NCBI GenBank assembly: GCA_904502095.1
Contig: CAJGDG010000002.1
Coordinates: forward strand, 128 to 64,127
Length of the DNA stretch: 64,000 bases
Source: an uncultured Alphaproteobacteria bacterium
Lineage (GTDB): Bacteria > Pseudomonadota > Alphaproteobacteria > Rs-D84
Reading direction: 5' to 3'
A model generated the notes under the pieces. The model saw only the letters and a program-made list of their open reading frames with translations. It was not told the DNA's origin and ran no database searches. How positions within the stretch are numbered: the stretch's first letter is position 1; the number at the start of each line of letters is the position of its first letter. This document shows, piece by piece, positions 32,569-40,547 of the stretch. The position numbers and the translations under genes are program-made.

Positions 32569-34152
32569 ATGCTGTTGTTTATGTTAGGGAAGTTAAGGTC
32601 ATTTTTATTGTTTCTGTTTTGTCCCATTTTTATGGCGGCCGCAGAAGTGGTGAATTATACACCTTTTAATCCAGACTATATCAATTCTGATGTGTTCGGG
32701 GTGGGTGAATGTTTCTTCGAAAATGATGTTGTTATCGCAGACGACAGTACGGTTGCGCCCGATGTTATTAAAATAACAGGGTCTGTTATTATTGAAAACA
32801 ACGGTACGATACAATCAGACATAGAAATTTGTAATGGGTGTGTGGTTGTAATCAGAAACAGTGGTCAAATAAATGCAAATTTTATTGTCGGTAAAAATGC
32901 GTTTGTTTATCATGTGATTTCTGAAGCAGATGAAATTGTGCCAATTAATTTTAATGCGCCTTATACGATGTTTGTGGAAAGCAATACCGCGCTTTCTTTG
33001 GCGGATGTTGTAGATGCCGCAAATGGCGCTGATAAAATAATTTTCAAAAATACAAAATTAAATATCGACAGATTACCTGCAAATAAAATGGCGGATATAG
33101 AAATTGGTGAAAATGTCGTGTTCGTTATGAACGGAGATATGGAATTAGAATCAGAAATCGTTTTGGGTAATGTTATAAGCGATTCGTCTGTGCGCTTTGA
33201 ATCAAGTGGTTGTGATAAAATGTATTCGTGCGTCGGCTATATCAAAGATGGAAAATTATATGTCGAACAAACACGAAACACAGAATATAAAGATATAATA
33301 GAAGACAAAGATAAAAGCAATCTTGTAGATAATTTGCCAGAAAATGACGCTTTGGTTGAAGAATTGGATTCTGCAGTTGATACAAATCAGATAAATAAAA
33401 TTATGTCAAAGTCAGCGCGTTTTAATCCAGATGTTTTACGCGTGCCCCTTAAAATCATAAATGAAATGGATATGATAGATTTGACGGTTCCAGAAAATAA
33501 AATTGTTGCAAAGCCGTTTGCAATTTTAAGCGATGATTTTTATTTATATGGGGCGGGGCTGACTATGGCCGGAAATGTGACGGAAGATTTAAATTTGTCT
33601 GTTGGTATCAGTGTTGCAAAAATGGAATATGCGTCAGATTATGATGAATTTTCAGGTATATTATACGGGATAAATTTTGGTGGAAATTATTCTGTTGTGG
33701 ACGATTGGTTTGTGCGGTTTAAAATAGGCGCCTCAATTGCGGATTTTGATATAGATTCTGTTTTATATGATGGAAAGTTAATCAGTGGCCCCAGTGCCAG
33801 ATTTGGTTATGGGTTGGTGGATTTAGGATACGATTTTAATGATTCTGATTCGTGGAAAATATCGCCATTTGTTGGCGTGTCTGCACAGTTTTATGATGTC
33901 GAAAATAATTTAAGTTATGAATATATGGGGCGCGTTGGTACTGCGTTTGAATATAAGTATAATGCATCTGGGTTGGAATATCATTATGGATTGGATTTGT
34001 TTGTAAATACCGACAGTACAATGGCGGCGACGGCGAATCTTGGTTTTACAAGTTTGATGGATTCGGTCGGCGGAAATGTGTCGGCAACGATTTTGCGCGC
34101 CGAGAATATTTGGAACTATAAATTATCAATCAGCGCAAAGTTATTATTCTGA
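32569..34152 (+). CDS. Autotransporter-like outer-membrane protein
   Basis: Signal peptide, ~270-aa passenger, C-terminal ~250-aa strand-rich domain ending SISAKLLF. Confidence 0.6.
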   Translation: MLLFMLGKLRSFLLFLFCPIFMAAAEVVNYTPFNPDYINSDVFGVGECFFENDVVIADDSTVAPDVIKITGSVIIENNGTIQSDIEICNGCVVVIRNSGQINANFIVGKNAFVYHVISEADEIVPINFNAPYTMFVESNTALSLADVVDAANGADKIIFKNTKLNIDRLPANKMADIEIGENVVFVMNGDMELESEIVLGNVISDSSVRFESSGCDKMYSCVGYIKDGKLYVEQTRNTEYKDIIEDKDKSNLVDNLPENDALVEELDSAVDTNQINKIMSKSARFNPDVLRVPLKIINEMDMIDLTVPENKIVAKPFAILSDDFYLYGAGLTMAGNVTEDLNLSVGISVAKMEYASDYDEFSGILYGINFGGNYSVVDDWFVRFKIGASIADFDIDSVLYDGKLISGPSARFGYGLVDLGYDFNDSDSWKISPFVGVSAQFYDVENNLSYEYMGRVGTAFEYKYNASGLEYHYGLDLFVNTDSTMAATANLGFTSLMDSVGGNVSATILRAENIWNYKLSISAKLLF

Positions 34153-35460
34153 TGTCTTTGCGAACTTTCCACGCAGTGACGCTTTGTTTGCAGCAGTAAT
34201 GCAAATGTTTGCCAGGACGGGTGCGGGTGTGTTTGTGTCCGGCTTTTCAACCACGCATTGTTGCATATATGGTGTGCGATAAATCAAATGGCGGCCTGTT
34301 TTGTCGTCGCCTTCTAGTAAACATTCCATTGTTTTATCAATACAATTGATGTTGAATTCGCGTTGAATTTCGTTCAGGCAATTATCCAGCGCTGCCAGAC
34401 GCGCAGCTTTTATGTTTTCTGGAATCTGGTCTGTCATTAATGCGGCGCCTGTGTGTGGTCGCGGAGAATATTTAAAAGAATATGAATTTATATATCTGAT
34501 TTGTTGGGCGATGTTCATTGTTTGTTCAAAATCTTCGTCTGTTTCACCGGGGAAACCAACAATGAAATCTGATGAAATTTGTATGTCGGGGCGCGCAACA
34601 CGTAATTTGCGAATTATTTCTGTGTATAATTCTAATGAATAAGGTCTGTTCATGCGCGTCAAAACATCTTGCGAGCCGCTTTGAATTGGCATATTTAAAA
34701 ATGGTAATAATTTAGGCTCGACCGCGAACATATCAATTAAATCATCTGTCATTTCAGTTGGATAACTGGATGTGAATCTGATGCGTTTTACCGATTCGAT
34801 TTTTGCGGCTTCGCGGATTAAATCAGACAGTCTGTATGTCTTTCCTTTTTCGTCGGTATATTTATAACCGTTAACATTTTGCCCCAGAAAACATATTTCA
34901 ATTGCGCCTGTGTTTGCTGCGTGTATTGTATCGCTAACACAGTCTTGAAACTTTCGTGATATTTCGCGGCCGCGTGTATATGGCACAATACAATATGTAC
35001 AACAATGGTTGCAGCCTTCTTGAATTGGGATATATGCAACGGTGGGAGATTTTTCCATCTGTGGTAATTCGTCGAATTTTTCCAGGCCGCCCAAATCAAT
35101 ATTCAATAGTTTGGCGTCAGGGTTATCCAGAATTTCTGGTAATTTATGGTAAGACTGTGGCCCCAGTACAAAGTTTAAATCGGGGATTCTGCGAAACGCA
35201 TCTGCGCCCGATTCGCGCGCGACGCAACCAACAATGCCGAACAGGGCAGAGGGCTTTTTTGCACGTCTAATTCGACCAAGGGCAGAAAATACTTTATCCG
35301 TTGCTTTGGCGCGTACAGCACATGTGTTTAATATGATGATGTCGGCATCGCTGACTGTTTCTGTACGGTGCATTCCGCGGTGCTCCAACATCGCGGCGAT
35401 ACGCCAACCATCATATACATTCATTTGACAGCCAAAGGTTTGGATAAAGAATTTTTTCAT
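34144..35460 (-). CDS. miaB: tRNA-i6A37 methylthiotransferase MiaB
   Basis: N-terminal TFGCQMNVYD; radical-SAM CNHCCTYC; TRAM C-terminus. Confidence 0.88.
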   Translation of the reverse strand: MKKFFIQTFGCQMNVYDGWRIAAMLEHRGMHRTETVSDADIIILNTCAVRAKATDKVFSALGRIRRAKKPSALFGIVGCVARESGADAFRRIPDLNFVLGPQSYHKLPEILDNPDAKLLNIDLGGLEKFDELPQMEKSPTVAYIPIQEGCNHCCTYCIVPYTRGREISRKFQDCVSDTIHAANTGAIEICFLGQNVNGYKYTDEKGKTYRLSDLIREAAKIESVKRIRFTSSYPTEMTDDLIDMFAVEPKLLPFLNMPIQSGSQDVLTRMNRPYSLELYTEIIRKLRVARPDIQISSDFIVGFPGETDEDFEQTMNIAQQIRYINSYSFKYSPRPHTGAALMTDQIPENIKAARLAALDNCLNEIQREFNINCIDKTMECLLEGDDKTGRHLIYRTPYMQQCVVEKPDTNTPAPVLANICITAANKASLRGKFAKTSE

Positions 35461-35464
35461 AGTT

Positions 35465-35632
35465 TTATTTATGTTTTGTATTGTTGTATTGCTTTTGTAT
35501 GTGTTTTATTTGTGCTTGTTTATATTGTTGCGCAATATAACGTTTTTTATATCGTTCTTCTTGACGATGTATTTTTGCGTTTGCCTCTACAGCACTCATT
35601 TCGCGCAGAGTTCTAATTAAATCATTAATCAT
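35465..35632 (-). CDS. Small basic ORF orf55b (55 aa) MINDLIRTLREMSAVEANAKIHRQEERYKKRYIAQQYKQAQIKHIQKQYNNTKHK
   Basis: Hand-translated. The ATG overlaps the orf55a stop (ATGA). The stop lies 4 nt before the miaB ATG. Below the ORF-track length cutoff. Confidence 0.45.
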   Translation of the reverse strand: MINDLIRTLREMSAVEANAKIHRQEERYKKRYIAQQYKQAQIKHIQKQYNNTKHK

Positions 35633-35796
35633 TTTTGTCTTGTATTGTTGTAGTAGTGTTTTGCTTTTGCAAGTTTTACTTGTTTTACAGTGTTGTTATA
35701 ATTTCTTTTTGTTTCAACTTCGTCATGCAATTCAACCAGGCCATATACAACACCGGTAATATGATTGTTTTCAATAATAGTCAAATGTTTTGTCAT
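35629..35796 (-). CDS. Small ORF orf55a (55 aa) MTKHLTIIENNHITGVVYGLVELHDEVETKRNYNNTVKQVKLAKAKHYYNNTRQK
   Basis: Hand-translated. AAGGA SD 6 nt upstream. Starts 13 nt after the gatB stop. Confidence 0.5.
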   Translation of the reverse strand: MTKHLTIIENNHITGVVYGLVELHDEVETKRNYNNTVKQVKLAKAKHYYNNTRQK

Positions 35797-35809
35797 TTTT
35801 TATCCTTTT

Positions 35810-37330
35810 TTATGCCAATTTATTGCGTAAAATCTCGTTTACAACTGCAGGATTTGCAGTGCCGCCTGTTGCCTTCATAACATTGCCGACAAAGAAGCCC
35901 AGTAACCCAAGTTTACCAGATTTGTATTGTTCAACCTGAGATGGATTGGCGGATATTACATCGTCTATTATTTTTTCGATTGCGCCCGTGTCAGTCATTT
36001 GTTTCATGCCGAATTTATCTGCGATTTCACGTGGCGTTCCCGATTCTCCATCCAGCATTTTTATAAAGATTTCTTTGGCCTGTTTTCCGTTAACTGCGTT
36101 TTCGGAAATCATATCTACCAATTCTGCCAAATCGGATGGCGTGATGATTCGCATGCCGTCAACAATGCCGCTTTTTTCATTTAAGATGTCATAGTTTTCT
36201 GGATGCGCAAACAGTTCGCTTATCATCCAGTTAGCAACAGATTTTGCGCGTTTTGTGTTGCCCATAACCGCTGCGTCAAACCAGCGAGATATATCTGTTG
36301 TTTCTGTTAATCTGGCAGCATCATATTCAGACAGCCCGAATTCCGCCGTATAGCGCGCGCGTGTTTGTGATGGTAGCTCTGGCATGGTGCTGCGAATGCG
36401 TTCGATTTGTTCGTCGCTGATTATGACCGGTAATAAATCTGGGTCTGGGAAATAGCGATAATCCAGTGCGTCTTCTTTGCTGCGCGCGACAGATGTTGTG
36501 CCTTCGCCTTGGTTAAAGTGCATTGTGTCTTGTGAAACAGTGCCACCGTTTTCATAAATTTCAATTTGACGACGCGCTTCATATTCAATAGCAGTTTTGA
36601 TAAATTTAAACGAAACCATATTTTTTGTTTCTGTGCGGGTTCTGAATTCAGAACTGCCAACTGGACGAACTGATACATTTACGTCTGCGCGCATAGAGCC
36701 TTCTTCCATATTTGCGCGCGATACGCCCAACGCGCGTGCAATTTCACGAATTTCGCGCAGATATCTTTCGGCTTCGTCAGGGGAAGTAATATATGAGTTG
36801 TTTTCAGGATTTTTTGTGTCCAGATATGTGACAATTTCCAGCAGACCAACGCCTGTACGATTATAATCTGCAAAGGATTTTGTTGGATGTACATCGTGTT
36901 TTAATTTGCCGGCATCTTGTTCCAAGTGTGCACGTTCGATGAATATTTTTTTGGGTTTCCCATCATCGCCCATAATTTCAATCCAACCGTGACCAACGAT
37001 TGGCGCTTCGTCCGCTGGTTGTGAAATTTGATAGCCTTGGGGCAGGTCAGGATAGAAATATTGTTTGCGGGCAAAACGACTGGTGCGGGAAATTTCGGCA
37101 TTTAATCCCAATCCCATTTTTATTACCTGTTCAACACAGAATTTGTTCAGTACAGGCAACATACCTGGCATTCCTGCGTCAATCATTGAAACATGGGTGT
37201 TTGGGCTGATGCTGGGGTTATAGTCCGCAGATGCGCCGCTGAAAACCTTTGAGTTTGACAATATTTGGATGTGTGTTTCCAAACCGATTACCAATTCCCA
37301 ATCACATGTTTTGCCTTTTATTGTAAACAT
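35810..37330 (-). CDS. gatB: Asp/Glu-tRNA amidotransferase subunit B
   Basis: WELVIGLETHIQL..SK.FS and the PDLP/YFPDPDLLP motifs; 506 aa. Confidence 0.92.
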   Translation of the reverse strand: MFTIKGKTCDWELVIGLETHIQILSNSKVFSGASADYNPSISPNTHVSMIDAGMPGMLPVLNKFCVEQVIKMGLGLNAEISRTSRFARKQYFYPDLPQGYQISQPADEAPIVGHGWIEIMGDDGKPKKIFIERAHLEQDAGKLKHDVHPTKSFADYNRTGVGLLEIVTYLDTKNPENNSYITSPDEAERYLREIREIARALGVSRANMEEGSMRADVNVSVRPVGSSEFRTRTETKNMVSFKFIKTAIEYEARRQIEIYENGGTVSQDTMHFNQGEGTTSVARSKEDALDYRYFPDPDLLPVIISDEQIERIRSTMPELPSQTRARYTAEFGLSEYDAARLTETTDISRWFDAAVMGNTKRAKSVANWMISELFAHPENYDILNEKSGIVDGMRIITPSDLAELVDMISENAVNGKQAKEIFIKMLDGESGTPREIADKFGMKQMTDTGAIEKIIDDVISANPSQVEQYKSGKLGLLGFFVGNVMKATGGTANPAVVNEILRNKLA

Positions 37331-37385
37331 TTTTTCTTTTTCCCTTGCTTTTTTGTTTTTTGTATCCTAATATTCACTCCGCGTT

Positions 37386-37461
37386 GGCTAGGTAGCTCAG
37401 TTGGTAGAGCAAGGGACTGAAAATCCCTGTGTCGGCGGTTCGATTCCGTCCCTAGCCACCA
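37386..37461 (+). tRNA. tRNA-Phe (anticodon GAA), CCA encoded, antisense to the gatA-gatB spacer
   Basis: GGCTAGGTAGCTCAGTTGGTAGAGCAAGGGACTGAAAATCCCTGTGTCGGCGGTTCGATTCCGTCCCTAGCCACCA. Anticodon loop CTGAAAA. Confidence 0.92.
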
Positions 37462-37473
37462 TCTCCTTTCTTT

Positions 37474-37495
37474 CGGCCGTTGCGGTCGTTTTTTT
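37474..37495 (+). terminator. Terminator of tRNA-Phe; its T tract overlaps the gatA stop codon
   Basis: CGGCCG-TTG-CGGTCG followed by TTTTTTT. Confidence 0.65.
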
Positions 37496-38960
37496 ATTTC
37501 CCCATAATTGTTGTTGGGCGGTTGTCGATGTTTGCCGCAGATTCGATATGTTTTGCCAATTGCAATACACGCATATCGTCAAAGCGAGCACCTATAACTT
37601 GCATCCCCAGTGGCAGACCGTTTTGTGCCAAGCCACATGGTACGCTGCACGCAGGAATGCCGACCAAATTCATAGCGACGGTAAATAAATCCAGCGCGTA
37701 ATATTCCAGCGGTTTTAAATCGGACGCCAAAGACATTGCAGTTCCAGCGCTGGATGGACATACGATTAAATCACATTTCTTGAACGCTGCGTTAAAAGCG
37801 TCGGAAATCAGACGGCGAACGCGTGCTGCCTGCATAAAATATACATCGTATGATTCACTGCTTAATACGGCGGTGCCGATAATCATACGGCGCTTTACTT
37901 CGTCACCGAAACCGGCAGCACGGCTTTTGTCAAATGTGTCATATATATCATTACCTTCGACGCGCAAACCATAACGCATACCGTCATAGCGTGCCAGGTT
38001 TGAAGATGCTTCGGCTGGGGCGATTATATAATATGCCGCCAATGCGTCCAGAATGTTTGGGATAGAAACTTCTACTATTTCTGCGCCCAAGGATTTTAAA
38101 TCTGCGATTCGTTTTTCAAACAATGTTTTCATATCGTCTGAAATTTCAACATTTGCAAATTCTTTGATAACACCAACGCGCAGTTTTTTGCCGTTGCCCA
38201 AAATTGCTTCCAATGGGCCGTTGCATTTAAAGCCGTTTTTCGCACTTGTCGAATCTTTTTCGTCGTGTCCTGCCATTGCTGCCAGCATTAATGCTGCATC
38301 ATCAACAGTGCGCGCGATTGGGCCTGGGGTGTCCAAACTGGATGCGTATGCAATACAACCCCATCTGGAACATAAGCCATATGTTGGTTTCATGCCAACC
38401 ATACCTGTAATCGCAGCGGGAAAGCGAATAGAACCGCCTGTGTCTGTGCCTGTTGCGGCGATTGCCAAACCACCCGCAACAGCCGATGTTGAACCACCAG
38501 ATGAACCGCCGGCGGTTAACCGTTTTTCCATTTGCCATGGGTTAATTGGTGCGCCAAAGAAACTGGTCTTGCTGAAAGTGCCCATTGCAAATTCGTCAAG
38601 ATTTACCTTGCCCAGTAAAACTGTACCCGCATTAATCAGATTTTGTGAAACGGTCGACTCGTATTCTGGTACAAAATTTTCCAGCATTTTTGATGCTGCT
38701 GTTGTGCGAATGCCACGTGTTGCAAACAAGTCTTTCATTGCAATTGGCAAACCGTCCAACGGCAGGGCGGCGCCAGCCGCACGACGCGCATCAGATGCGG
38801 CTGCATCAGCCATGGCGCGTTCCGGTGTGACAGTGATATAGCAATTTAAATCAGCACCATATTTTTCAATGCGGTCTAAATAGTCGCGTGTTAATTCAAC
38901 TGCGCTGATTTCGCCGTTGTTTAATTTTTTTAATGCTTCGGTTAATGTTAAGTTTATCAT
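37494..38960 (-). CDS. gatA: Glu-tRNA(Gln) amidotransferase subunit A
   Basis: Amidase signature GGSSGGSTSAVA and GTDTGGSIRFPA. Confidence 0.93.
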   Translation of the reverse strand: MINLTLTEALKKLNNGEISAVELTRDYLDRIEKYGADLNCYITVTPERAMADAAASDARRAAGAALPLDGLPIAMKDLFATRGIRTTAASKMLENFVPEYESTVSQNLINAGTVLLGKVNLDEFAMGTFSKTSFFGAPINPWQMEKRLTAGGSSGGSTSAVAGGLAIAATGTDTGGSIRFPAAITGMVGMKPTYGLCSRWGCIAYASSLDTPGPIARTVDDAALMLAAMAGHDEKDSTSAKNGFKCNGPLEAILGNGKKLRVGVIKEFANVEISDDMKTLFEKRIADLKSLGAEIVEVSIPNILDALAAYYIIAPAEASSNLARYDGMRYGLRVEGNDIYDTFDKSRAAGFGDEVKRRMIIGTAVLSSESYDVYFMQAARVRRLISDAFNAAFKKCDLIVCPSSAGTAMSLASDLKPLEYYALDLFTVAMNLVGIPACSVPCGLAQNGLPLGMQVIGARFDDMRVLQLAKHIESAANIDNRPTTIMGK

Positions 38961-39349
38961 TTTGTTTTACTTTCGTTTTGTTTTGCTTTTAATACAGCGT
39001 TTGTTGTTCTGATTTGTGTTTCGCACTTTGCTTTTTCGGCGTTTAATTTTTTTATTGCATCTTCTAGTGCCCGAATTTCTGCATCAATATTTTTTGATTT
39101 GTTTTCTAGGGTTTGTTTTTGCTGTTCAAGGCCAGAAATGTCATTTGTGTTAAAACTGTTTTGTTGCAGTTTTGTAATTGCGCTTGTTATTTCTTCATAG
39201 CCCTTGGCGCCAAGTTGGCGAATGTGTTTAATAAAGTTGGAATCGCTGTAATACAGGTCTAACAAGCTTGCAACAGAATCAATACCAAATGATTTTAATC
39301 TGTTTGATGTGCGAGTAGATAAATTCAAAGAGTCTAAATCGCGTTGCAT
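38957..39349 (-). CDS. Small protein with an RNA polymerase alpha-CTD-like helix-hairpin-helix domain plus a C-terminal coiled-coil (130 aa)
   Basis: LNLSTRTSNRLKSFGIDSVASLL...IRQLGAKGYEEITSAI matches L.LS.R..N.L...gI.tv..L......l....G.ks..EI. The stop overlaps the gatA ATG (ATGA). Confidence 0.5.
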   Translation of the reverse strand: MQRDLDSLNLSTRTSNRLKSFGIDSVASLLDLYYSDSNFIKHIRQLGAKGYEEITSAITKLQQNSFNTNDISGLEQQKQTLENKSKNIDAEIRALEDAIKKLNAEKAKCETQIRTTNAVLKAKQNESKTK

Positions 39350-39358
39350 TTTTAGTCC

Positions 39359-39760
39359 TTACTTTTGTTTTGAATAATATTCAGGAAACAGGTATATACC
39401 AATAGTGCTTTGTACAAATTTGTTTGTGCATTTACCTGATTTGATATTCCCCAGACATTGTGATTTATGACATTTGCATTTGCGACCAAAAGAGCAATTT
39501 AATGTGACATGATTGTGAATGTCTGTTTGGTAAAAATATTTTTCGTTTTCATTTGTTAAACAATGTGCGATATAGCCGTTCGATAATGAACCGGATATTT
39601 GTTTGATACAGTCTGTTTTTGTAGGGTTTGACTGCGCCAATGTCTGAAACAAATTTGTGATTGTTTCTTCGCTGTGACGACCTGTGTCAATAATGTGTTT
39701 TTTAAACAGGCCTTTCGCAACCAAATATACGCGAAAAAGTTGTGGTGATTGTTTGCTCAT
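39359..39760 (-). CDS. Cys-rich hypothetical protein (133 aa)
   Basis: C-terminal cluster CSFGRKCKCHKSQCLGNIKSGKC. The ATG lies 3 nt after the gatC stop. Confidence 0.5.
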   Translation of the reverse strand: MSKQSPQLFRVYLVAKGLFKKHIIDTGRHSEETITNLFQTLAQSNPTKTDCIKQISGSLSNGYIAHCLTNENEKYFYQTDIHNHVTLNCSFGRKCKCHKSQCLGNIKSGKCTNKFVQSTIGIYLFPEYYSKQK

Positions 39761-39763
39761 TTT

Positions 39764-40060
39764 TTATTCCCCGTCTTTTACTTTGGGGACCGCGAAATAC
39801 CCGCGTGATGTTCCCGCGTTGTCAGGAGTGTTCGCCAAAACCAGGTCACGAATGTCGCCGTCTGTGACAATGTCTTCACGGACGGGCGCACCGTGTTCTG
39901 CGGGCGTTAACATTGGCTCAACACCGGCAGTGTCAATTTGTTGTAATTTGTCCAGCCATTCAACAACGGAATCGATGTTCATTTCTTCCAATTTTTCGGG
40001 TGCGATTTCGATGTGAATCAAGTGTGCAAATTTTTGTAATTGTTGCTTGCTAAATGCCAT
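39764..40060 (-). CDS. gatC: Asp/Glu-tRNA amidotransferase subunit C
   Basis: IDTAGVEPMLTP...VREDIV...YFAVPKV. ATG with AGGA SD; the ORF track extends to a TTG at 40066. Confidence 0.88.
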   Translation of the reverse strand: MAFSKQQLQKFAHLIHIEIAPEKLEEMNIDSVVEWLDKLQQIDTAGVEPMLTPAEHGAPVREDIVTDGDIRDLVLANTPDNAGTSRGYFAVPKVKDGE

Positions 40061-40097
40061 TTTCAATCCTATATTTATAAAGTAAAGGAATTATACA

Positions 40098-40547
40098 ATG
40101 ATTTTGCCAGATTTCAAGGCTTTTCCGCGCAGCGGACGCATTTTGGGAATAGATTGGGGTGTGCGCCGCATTGGTGTGGCGGTGACTGACCCCGATATGA
40201 ACTTTGTTTTTGTGCGTGATACAATTTTGTTGCCGCGTGGTGCGAAAAATCATGCTGTGTTGGTTGCAGATATTGCTGAAGTGGAAAAGGTGCACGGAAT
40301 TGTTGTGGGCTTGCCCGTGCGCGGGGACGGTTCGGAATCTGAAACAACTGTGATGGTTCGTGAATTTGTTTTGCAACTGGAAAAGGAAACAGATTTGCCG
40401 ATTTGTATGCTGGAAGAAAATTTAACATCTGTGCAGGCGCAATCTGAAATGGGGCGGACCAGGGTATCCGATTTAAAGGAACGGTTGGATTCTGAATCTG
40501 CGCGTGTAATATTGGAAAATGCGATTGCAATGATAAAACGGGCATAA
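40098..40547 (+). CDS. ruvX: YqgF/RuvX putative pre-16S rRNA nuclease
   Basis: ILGIDWGVRRIGVAVTD...IVVGLPV. Confidence 0.88.
   Translation: MILPDFKAFPRSGRILGIDWGVRRIGVAVTDPDMNFVFVRDTILLPRGAKNHAVLVADIAEVEKVHGIVVGLPVRGDGSESETTVMVREFVLQLEKETDLPICMLEENLTSVQAQSEMGRTRVSDLKERLDSESARVILENAIAMIKRA

Follow-up and report, generated by a model that had tools for sequence, protein, structure and literature searches.

Variable small-protein genes at two junctions of the gatCAB-miaB array in the Enterousia lineage

The gatCAB genes form one of the most conserved and compact bacterial operons. In the 64,000-nt stretch of DNA analyzed here (the window; contig CAJGDG010000002.1 of assembly GCA_904502095.1, from an uncultured alphaproteobacterium of Rs-D84), gatC, gatA and gatB share the minus strand with miaB, and the array also contains four small open reading frames (ORFs) and a tRNA-Phe gene on the opposite strand. 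Two of the small ORFs lie between gatC and gatA, the other two between gatB and miaB. We refer to these two junctions as slots and to the small genes in them as cassettes. The members of the array are the following:

gatC, 39764-40066, (-): longest ORF, with a TTG start; gene callers take the ATG at 40060, which gives 98 amino acids (aa)
orf133, 39359-39760, (-): first cassette of the gatC-gatA slot
orf130, 38957-39349, (-): second cassette of the gatC-gatA slot; its stop overlaps the gatA start in ATGA
gatA, 37494-38960, (-): without a Shine-Dalgarno (SD) sequence of its own; its start overlaps the orf130 stop
tRNA-Phe(GAA), 37386-37461, (+): on the strand opposite to the gat genes; it converges with gatA and diverges from gatB
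gatB, 35810-37330, (-): assigned by curated models
orf55a, 35629-35796, (-): first cassette of the gatB-miaB slot, with its own AAGGA SD
orf55b, 35465-35632, (-): overlaps orf55a by ATGA and ends 4 nt before the SD-less miaB
miaB, 34144-35460, (-): tRNA ms2i6A37 methylthiotransferase, assigned by a curated model

All four enzyme genes pass curated models above the cutoffs. GatC meets the TIGR00135 equivalog (60.8 bits; cutoff 47.1), GatA the TIGR00132 equivalog (525.8 bits; cutoff 481.1) and GatB both NF004015 (631 vs. 628) and TIGR00133 (481.5 vs. 314.8). MiaB meets TIGR01574 over the full model (438 bits; cutoff 355.3) and also matches PF00919 (UPF0004) and PF04055 (radical SAM), while the tRNA-Phe gene between gatA and gatB has an Rfam tRNA score of 73 bits. 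These assignments agree with an earlier annotation made from the letters of the window (the original prediction), of which the coordinates, strands, gaps, ATGA overlaps and the AAGGA before orf55a are all reproduced by the ORF list. The successive ORFs of the array are separated by 3, 9, 163, 13 and 4 nt, besides the ATGA overlaps at orf130/gatA and orf55a/orf55b.

Relatives were collected by a GatA scan of species-representative genomes, which gave 80 loci with a GatA identity of 80-90%, nearly all of them labelled ‘Candidatus Enterousia’ or Alphaproteobacteria metagenome-assembled genomes (MAGs) from ruminant, horse and other guts. Enterousia genomes (order Rs-D84) are reduced to about 0.75-1.0 Mb and are about 90% coding (PMC12306168). 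MAG contigs of a single species (GCA_045645945.1 and others) encode the same proteins as the window. The presence of a family was counted by six-frame matches of hidden Markov models (HMMs) in the slots, with 78 species as denominator for the gatC-gatA families and 66 for the gatB-miaB families; comparison loci are given below by their L numbers.

GatC, GatA, GatB and MiaB are 70-93% identical across this set and all species keep all four genes. A synteny of about 17 kb with 14 junctions is conserved throughout the genus, and the gatC-gatA and gatB-miaB junctions are the only hypervariable ones. The gene order proposed as a check in the original prediction is thus fixed for the backbone but not for the small ORFs, the content of which varies at both junctions. 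The backbone includes the tRNA-Phe gene, which in 75/75 loci is found on the opposite strand at a distance of 51-56 nt from the gatB start, within a gatA-gatB spacer of normally 134-320 bp; miaB always comes after gatB in the genus. The array therefore resembles the canonical contiguous gatCAB operon in its gatC-gatA-gatB order, and in 21 relatives also in the direct succession of gatC and gatA, but differs from it by the tRNA gene that splits gatA from gatB, by the position of miaB and by the extra genes at two junctions.

The spacer between gatC and gatA ranges from 5 to 1641 bp with quantised lengths of about 7, 430, 830, 1100-1200 and 1600 bp, and that between gatB and miaB from 25 to 1016 bp. 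The gatC-gatA slot is empty in 21/78 species, where gatA starts 2-4 nt after gatC, and the gatB-miaB slot has no cassette of any kind in two species. The number of gatC-gatA cassettes differs from that of the nearest-neighbour species in 38/66 comparisons; loci L076 and L077, with flanks that are 98.3% identical at the amino acid level, carry one and three cassettes, respectively. The orf133 family is found in 54/78 species with a copy number between zero and four, and orf130 homologues in 8/78, always after an orf133-like gene. In the other slot, the orf55a family occurs as a single copy in 60/66 species and the orf55b family in 53/66. The original prediction had named missing homologues at the same position as the finding that would speak against it; such positional homologues are present in most of the 80 related species. 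A constant co-occurrence with the enzyme genes, as expected of dedicated accessory subunits, is not borne out by these counts. Unrelated families also occur as cassettes (F4 and F6 in the gatC-gatA slot, and middle ORFs with a length of 113-154 aa), and fused or truncated units are present in some slots. Pfam returned no match and no mobility enzyme for the rarer inserts (the 426-aa, 231-aa, F4, F6 and middle ORFs).

Within 1.28 Mb of Enterousia DNA, none of the four families has a copy away from this array, and the metagenome matches as well as the divergent members of the orf55a family are found at the same positions. In L096, gatC is followed by at least four orf133-like units. Locus L049 has three tandem orf133-like genes between ruvX and gatC (L049:5747-7132) in addition to one in the gatC-gatA slot, and the trio amounts to a third site of insertion, ahead of the first gene of the operon. 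Divergent orf133-like genes outside the gat contexts were found in L088, L094, L089 and L095 and are described below.

Evidence for coding was obtained from family alignments, for which the ratio of nonsynonymous to synonymous substitution rates (dN/dS) was compared between the reading frame and shifted-frame controls, with dS being saturated across the genus. In frame, dN/dS is 0.18-0.43 for the orf133 family, 0.5-0.7 for the orf55a family and 0.44-0.53 for the orf55b family, compared to 0.8-1.3 in the shifted frames. Gene calling in independent assemblies recovers all four small ORFs, and six conspecific contigs of independent sample origin preserve every frame; their sole indel is a 45-nt in-frame duplication. 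The low in-frame ratios and the intact frames argue, at the level of sequence, that the four small ORFs are real coding genes. They could alternatively be non-functional, either chance ORFs or decaying remnants in A-rich spacers, as their shortness, their A-rich and biased composition, the fused or truncated units and the lack of a known domain in three of the four might suggest. This alternative is largely refuted and we give it hardly any weight, because of the dN/dS contrast and the intact frames, because all 197 six-frame family matches lie on the gat strand (74/74, 8/8, 60/60 and 55/55) and because certain residues are invariant over more than 130 divergent sequences. The 45-nt duplication mentioned above is a tandem one at the orf55a/orf55b junction (L002:12794-13006, GCA_045645945.1), which extends orf55b from 55 to 70 aa and provides a small example of duplication-driven change within a slot.

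The ratios for gatC, gatA, gatB and miaB are 0.05-0.09, and the cassette proteins change about 5-10 times faster than the proteins flanking them. In most pairs of species, cassettes and gatA have diverged in parallel at synonymous sites, consistent with vertical descent. In a few pairs, the cassettes are nearly identical while the divergence of gatA is saturated. Sliding-window identity was used to locate the exchanged tracts: in the pairs L062/L066 and L039/L055 the identity is 96-100% over the cassette block and 72-86% in both flanks, and for L048 vs. L053 the gatB-miaB cassettes together with the 5′ half of miaB are 96-100% identical with flanks at 84-90%. Some of the MAG pairs that share such tracts originate from separate studies or host animals, which makes an assembly artefact unlikely. 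We read the sharply bounded tracts as recombination between species, with breakpoints in the conserved flanks.

The original prediction treated all four small proteins as unknown. This still holds for orf133, orf55a and orf55b but not for orf130. The orf133 protein is basic, with an isoelectric point (pI) of 9.4, and has no match in Pfam, NCBIfam, PHROGs, PADLOC or the PDB sequences. An exhaustive HMMER search placed the family in at least 221 clusters at 50% identity, nearly all with a length of 120-150 aa. Each of four cysteines (C51, C97, C102 and C111), and likewise G109 and Y129, is retained by 125-132 of 132 divergent representatives. The AlphaFold2 (AF2) model, with a mean predicted local distance difference test score (pLDDT) of 66, has a beta-beta-alpha-beta-beta N-terminal half and a helical C-terminal half, and three of the four conserved cysteines sit in the latter. 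It shows no fold match in the PDB at E<0.06, although the N-terminal half is weakly beta-grasp-like. The orf133 protein is presumably a Cys4 domain with a predicted metal-binding capacity. WhiB-like (Wbl) proteins are small Cys4 iron-sulfur transcription factors of actinobacteria, and orf133 shares with them, by way of analogy, a size of about 130 aa, a predicted cytoplasmic location, four cysteines that do not vary and a basic tail at the C-terminus; moreover, a gene with a transcription-related domain often comes after an orf133-like gene. Unlike Wbl proteins, orf133 has no match to the Pfam Whib model (E≤1), has the spacing C-x~45-C-x4-C-x8-C and occurs in a different taxon.

The divergent orf133-like genes outside the gat contexts have other neighbors. 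In L088 (1888-2421) and L094 (1037-1417) an orf133-like protein is fused to a segment resembling acyl carrier protein (ACP) and located after an autotransporter gene; the fusion is followed by a conserved cysteine-rich ORF (MPFIQEKKNNVEKCSGC.EHCDLG...) without a Pfam match. In L089 (5277-6960; GCA_052839245.1), a divergent orf133-like protein of 319 aa adjoins a gene with an Mtd_N domain (E=7e-14). This N-terminal domain of the major tropism determinant is, in Bordetella phage BPP-1, part of the target protein of a diversity-generating retroelement; the L089 stretch that we examined contains no reverse transcriptase. In L095, a queH gene in convergent orientation comes after the divergent orf133-like gene.

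Residues ~2-60 of orf130 match the Pfam domain PF03118 (RNA_pol_A_CTD), i.e., the C-terminal domain (CTD) of the RNA polymerase alpha subunit, with 32.9 bits against a threshold of 23.8 (E=5e-8). The family profile hits the PDB chain 1z3e_B with E=9.6e-11 and about 50 further alpha chains. The residues aligned to R265, N268, G296 and K298 of E. coli alpha, the determinants of DNA binding at UP elements, are kept. The C-terminal half is a coiled coil that perhaps serves oligomerisation. By these sequence features, orf130 is a free-standing alpha-CTD-like helix-hairpin-helix protein with a coiled coil. It shares the domain with RpoA but differs in its free-standing form of 130 aa, in the C-terminal coiled coil and in the lack of the alpha N-terminal domain, and therefore cannot assemble into RNA polymerase in the way alpha does. 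An identification as RpoA itself was rejected: RpoA has ~310-340 aa, the N-terminal dimerisation/assembly domain is missing from orf130, and the equivalog matches cover the last ~60 residues with 17-32 bits vs. cutoffs of 228-523. The orf130 family comprises 22 database clusters, mostly from this lineage. Single-linkage clustering and HMM iteration merged orf133 and orf130 because of read-through fusion proteins such as L036 and P0018; the two are no paralogues, with an hhalign probability of 2.6%. Some metagenomic proteins of 212-274 aa (P0241-P0243) combine PF03118 with sigma-70 region 4 (PF04545), which is an unusual fusion of two promoter-recognition modules.

The orf55a protein (pI 9.6) has a conserved N-terminal beta-hairpin motif, KVIxIxENNxITGVxYGxVEIP, followed by a long basic helix. 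Its family counts 63 database clusters, all annotated as ‘hypothetical’. No match was found in Pfam, NCBIfam, PHROGs, PADLOC or PDB profiles, and the AF2 model, in spite of a pLDDT of 81, has no fold match at E<0.06 in the PDB. The orf55b protein is very basic (pI 10.1) and helical, also without a match in Pfam, NCBIfam, PHROGs, PADLOC or PDB profiles. The two are no tandem duplicates, since their basic tail is the only part that aligns (25 columns, 62% probability). Both occur together in 51/66 species, orf55a alone in nine and orf55b alone in two, and their order is reversed in 15 species. This pair is much more stable than the gatC-gatA cassettes and may have a more fixed role. Because it is kept in ~80-90% of the species, a functional link to GatB or MiaB is possible.

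The arrangement in two-gene units with ATGA overlaps raises the question whether orf55a/orf55b and orf133/orf130 could be toxin-antitoxin or anti-phage modules within an essential operon. Rapid turnover, presence/absence polymorphism and core-anchored exchange are typical of conflict loci, and orf130 has weak PADLOC matches to PglW (E=1.3e-5) and to coiled-coil proteins. However, the matches to PglW, JetC and LmuB cover the helix-hairpin-helix and coiled-coil regions only, and no toxin, antitoxin or defence family was found above noise in Pfam, NCBIfam, PHROGs and PADLOC. The pairing is not obligate either, given the species with a single member of the orf55 pair and 46 species with an orf133-type but no orf130-type gene, and the order of the orf55 pair is not fixed. 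In addition, no phage or viral homologues were found. We therefore regard such modules as improbable. A phage origin of the cassettes was likewise rejected, as there are no matches in viral contigs or phage genomes.

The original prediction proposed the four small proteins as accessory factors of a module centred on tRNA. As dedicated factors they could be, for instance, basic adaptors that pass tRNA on to the acidic GatCAB, or partners of MiaB in its action on tRNA-Phe. Several observations agree with this: every recognisable neighbor acts on tRNA, the families are found essentially only at the array, the junctions are tight and fit translational coupling, the orf55 pair is widely kept, and all four small proteins are basic (pI 9.2-10.1) whereas GatC, GatA and GatB are acidic. 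For the two ORFs between gatC and gatA, the claim is nevertheless not supported, since their slot is variable, swapped and in some species empty, and the domain of orf130 is of a type found in transcription and DNA binding and not in tRNA metabolism. More generally, a dedicated factor is difficult to reconcile with a copy number from zero to four, with orf130-type genes in so few species, with unrelated families in the same slot, with a dN of 5-10 times that of the flanks and with the swapping of blocks between species. Two species also lack gatB-miaB cassettes altogether, and the divergent orf133-like genes adjoin an autotransporter gene with an ACP-like ORF, an Mtd_N gene or queH, not gatA. 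We consider the accessory-factor explanation unlikely, although it is the strongest of the alternatives.

The junctions themselves show how additional genes could be accommodated. The last codons of gatC in the window, GAC GGG GAA TAA, carry an SD-like element for the next gene, and in the comparison loci gatC ends with ...GAC GGA GAA TAA, containing a GGAG that serves whichever gene comes next. Where the slot is filled, the first cassette begins 1-3 nt after the gatC stop and has an SD in 76% of cases. By contrast, gatA or miaB after the last cassette has an SD in at most 16% and starts at -4 (ATGA) or at +4 to +12 nt. Within the window, a GGGGA or AAGGA precedes orf133, orf130 and orf55a, while gatA, orf55b and miaB lack such an element. 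The proteins of all cassette types have a K/Q/N/T-rich tail (...KQK*, ...TKHK*), which reflects an A-rich junction such as AAACAAAAATGA, and an A-rich direct repeat of 26-32 nt at the 3′ ends of the cassettes is the sole feature shared by their boundaries. No integron- or MITE-like (miniature inverted-repeat transposable element) structure is present: the boundaries have no attC-like inverted repeats, and no integrase, recombinase or transposase is found in or beside the slots.

From these features a mechanism can be proposed. The cassettes, which have no evident promoters of their own, would use the transcription of the operon and translational coupling. The first cassette would take over the SD at the gatC end or, after gatB, bring its own SD, and the A-rich tail of a cassette would double as the initiation region of the next, SD-less gene, so that gatA and miaB would stay expressed by re-initiation. 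With such a coupled design, an insertion need not silence the essential gene downstream. A leader-peptide or attenuator function that senses Asn/Gln-tRNA or UNN codons was considered and rejected: the N+Q content is 11.6-13.7% against 11.4-14.1% expected, UNN is not enriched, and the richness in N and Q is fully explained by the A-rich composition, which leaves a sensing role unsupported.

The same data allow the opposite emphasis, i.e., that the ORFs are mainly translational couplers which feed ribosomes to the SD-less gatA and miaB, while the peptides matter little. After cassettes, gatA and miaB lack an SD in 84-96% of cases and start between -4 and +12 nt, the A-rich tail is common to all cassette types regardless of family, the constraint on orf55a and orf55b is weak (dN/dS 0.44-0.7), and an A content of 0.37-0.45 in the cassettes would fit an origin from spacer sequence. 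Yet the species with an empty slot couple gatA directly to gatC, so no spacer ORF is needed. Moreover, four cysteines, a glycine and a tyrosine are invariant among the 132 divergent orf133 representatives, orf130 has a bona fide folded domain, the beta-hairpin of orf55a is conserved and confidently predicted by AF2, and the in-frame dN/dS lies clearly under the shifted-frame controls. A role as mere couplers thus appears rather improbable to us.

Signals that bear on the transcription of the array are the following:

promoter-like site TTGAAA-16-TATAAT, 40090-40117, (-): upstream of gatC; 11/12 positions, a consensus match only
terminator-like hairpin with T-run, 37474-37488, (+): six pairs, five of them GC, then TTTTTTTATT; a consensus match only
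55-nt spacer, 37331-37385, both strands: AAGGGA SD of gatB, with a candidate tRNA-Phe promoter on the opposite strand

The promoter-like site is the best consensus match of the region and is situated in the 31 nt that separate gatC from the divergently oriented ruvX. A consensus scan gave no terminator-like site on the minus strand inside the array. The hairpin is located directly 3′ of the tRNA-Phe gene, 5 nt from the gatA stop. The alignment of 75 loci shows a nearly invariant tRNA-Phe/gatB spacer with a length fixed at 51-56 nt; its opposite strand possibly contains a tRNA-Phe promoter, TTGCTT-17-TAATAT with a GC-rich discriminator, which is below the scan threshold and the -35 element of which would overlap the gatB SD. 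The claim of co-transcription and coupling in the original prediction is supported in part. Coupling has good support at the level of sequence from the tight junctions, the embedded SD and the SD-less gatA and miaB, but a single co-transcribed array is uncertain because the tRNA-Phe gene, with its own terminator-like hairpin, splits it. Transcription may reach gatB by read-through from gatA, or gatB may possess a separate promoter within the antisense tRNA gene.

In two species, the gatA-gatB junction carries an ORF of 426 aa between gatA and tRNA-Phe (L040:9471-10751 and L067:9471-11157; 73% identical to each other). Beside the 3′ end of the tRNA gene, L067 has about three tandem copies of a unit of ~120 nt that includes a segment similar to the tRNA 3′ end. 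These repeats resemble the att-site duplications that follow integration at a tRNA gene; no integrase was seen.

The strand composition of the window also reflects the array. GC skew is strongly positive (0.1-0.3) over nearly all of positions 1-64000 but falls to about 0 at 34-40 kb, where the gat-miaB genes are on the minus strand, with an AT skew of -0.16 to -0.19. As this shift lies exactly over the minus-strand array, the coding strands are purine-loaded, with A in particular, and the cassettes are the extreme of this A loading (A = 0.37-0.45). On the other side of miaB, an autotransporter-like ORF of 527 aa (32569-34152, +) runs towards miaB in convergent orientation, with an overlap of 9 nt at the 3′ end of the latter. 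It has a weak match to the Pfam Autotransporter domain (E=1e-4). Its position is kept genus-wide, yet the identity between species is ~30%, which makes it one more very fast-evolving gene beside the array.

Taken together, we favor, with moderate confidence, the reading of a housekeeping backbone with two permissive, coupled junctions that host fast-evolving, lineage-restricted genes for small proteins, exchanged between species. The cassettes look like riders on the expression of the operon and not like fixed parts of a tRNA machine, since they vary in number between species and are swapped. Their products are small, basic and cytoplasmic, and are probably binders of nucleic acids or RNA polymerase, as predicted from their sequences. 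As the cassettes turn over rapidly and are exchanged horizontally, their role may rather be dispensable and diversifying, for instance in genetic conflict or in lineage-specific regulation, than that of a core subunit of tRNA transamidation or modification.

Some points weigh against this reading. The strict positional fidelity of the four families could reflect a functional tie and not history, although it is as easily explained by one ancestral insertion, duplication in place and recombination anchored in the flanks. The retention of orf55a and orf55b in ~80-90% of species is easier to reconcile with a fixed role than with a dispensable one. The confidence of the orf133 model is modest and its metal binding is a prediction, and co-transcription and coupling are likewise deduced from sequence. 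A role in conflict, finally, has no supporting match in PADLOC, PHROGs, phage genomes or viral contigs. A more specific version of that role, which we mention as a rather speculative idea, is that the slots form an undescribed conflict or immunity locus in which the alpha-CTD-like cassette, often accompanied by a Cys4 protein, acts as a decoy or sensor for factors that target the alpha-CTD, e.g., those of phages. The cassettes of such a locus would be shuffled by recombination and hard-wired by translational coupling to an essential operon of a reduced genome, which we regard as equally speculative.

The slots are comparable to accessory-gene hotspots, defence islands and integron arrays in their fixed position between conserved genes, their co-oriented small ORFs that vary in number among close relatives and their horizontal exchange with breakpoints in the flanks. 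They differ from integron arrays by the absence of an integrase and of attC-like repeats, and from hotspots because they lie inside essential operons, between coupled genes and not between operons, and because the cassettes belong to a handful of lineage-restricted families without a known defence match. Our literature search turned up the genome-reduction background of Enterousia but no publication that deals with small ORFs in gatCAB-miaB arrays or with alpha-CTD-like proteins in a free form.

The analysis defines at least three undescribed protein families, one of them a large Cys4 family, and identifies a free-standing alpha-CTD-like protein; these families are accessible to biochemistry. 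It also corrects a reading based on guilt by association, as not every gene of a tRNA-related array acts on tRNA. In a genome of less than 1 Mb, the two gatCAB-miaB junctions tolerate changing and exchanged small genes, while the essential genes downstream appear to be expressed via re-initiation. The array is thereby a natural example of how new genes may enter, and be expressed in, a streamlined genome with few promoters.

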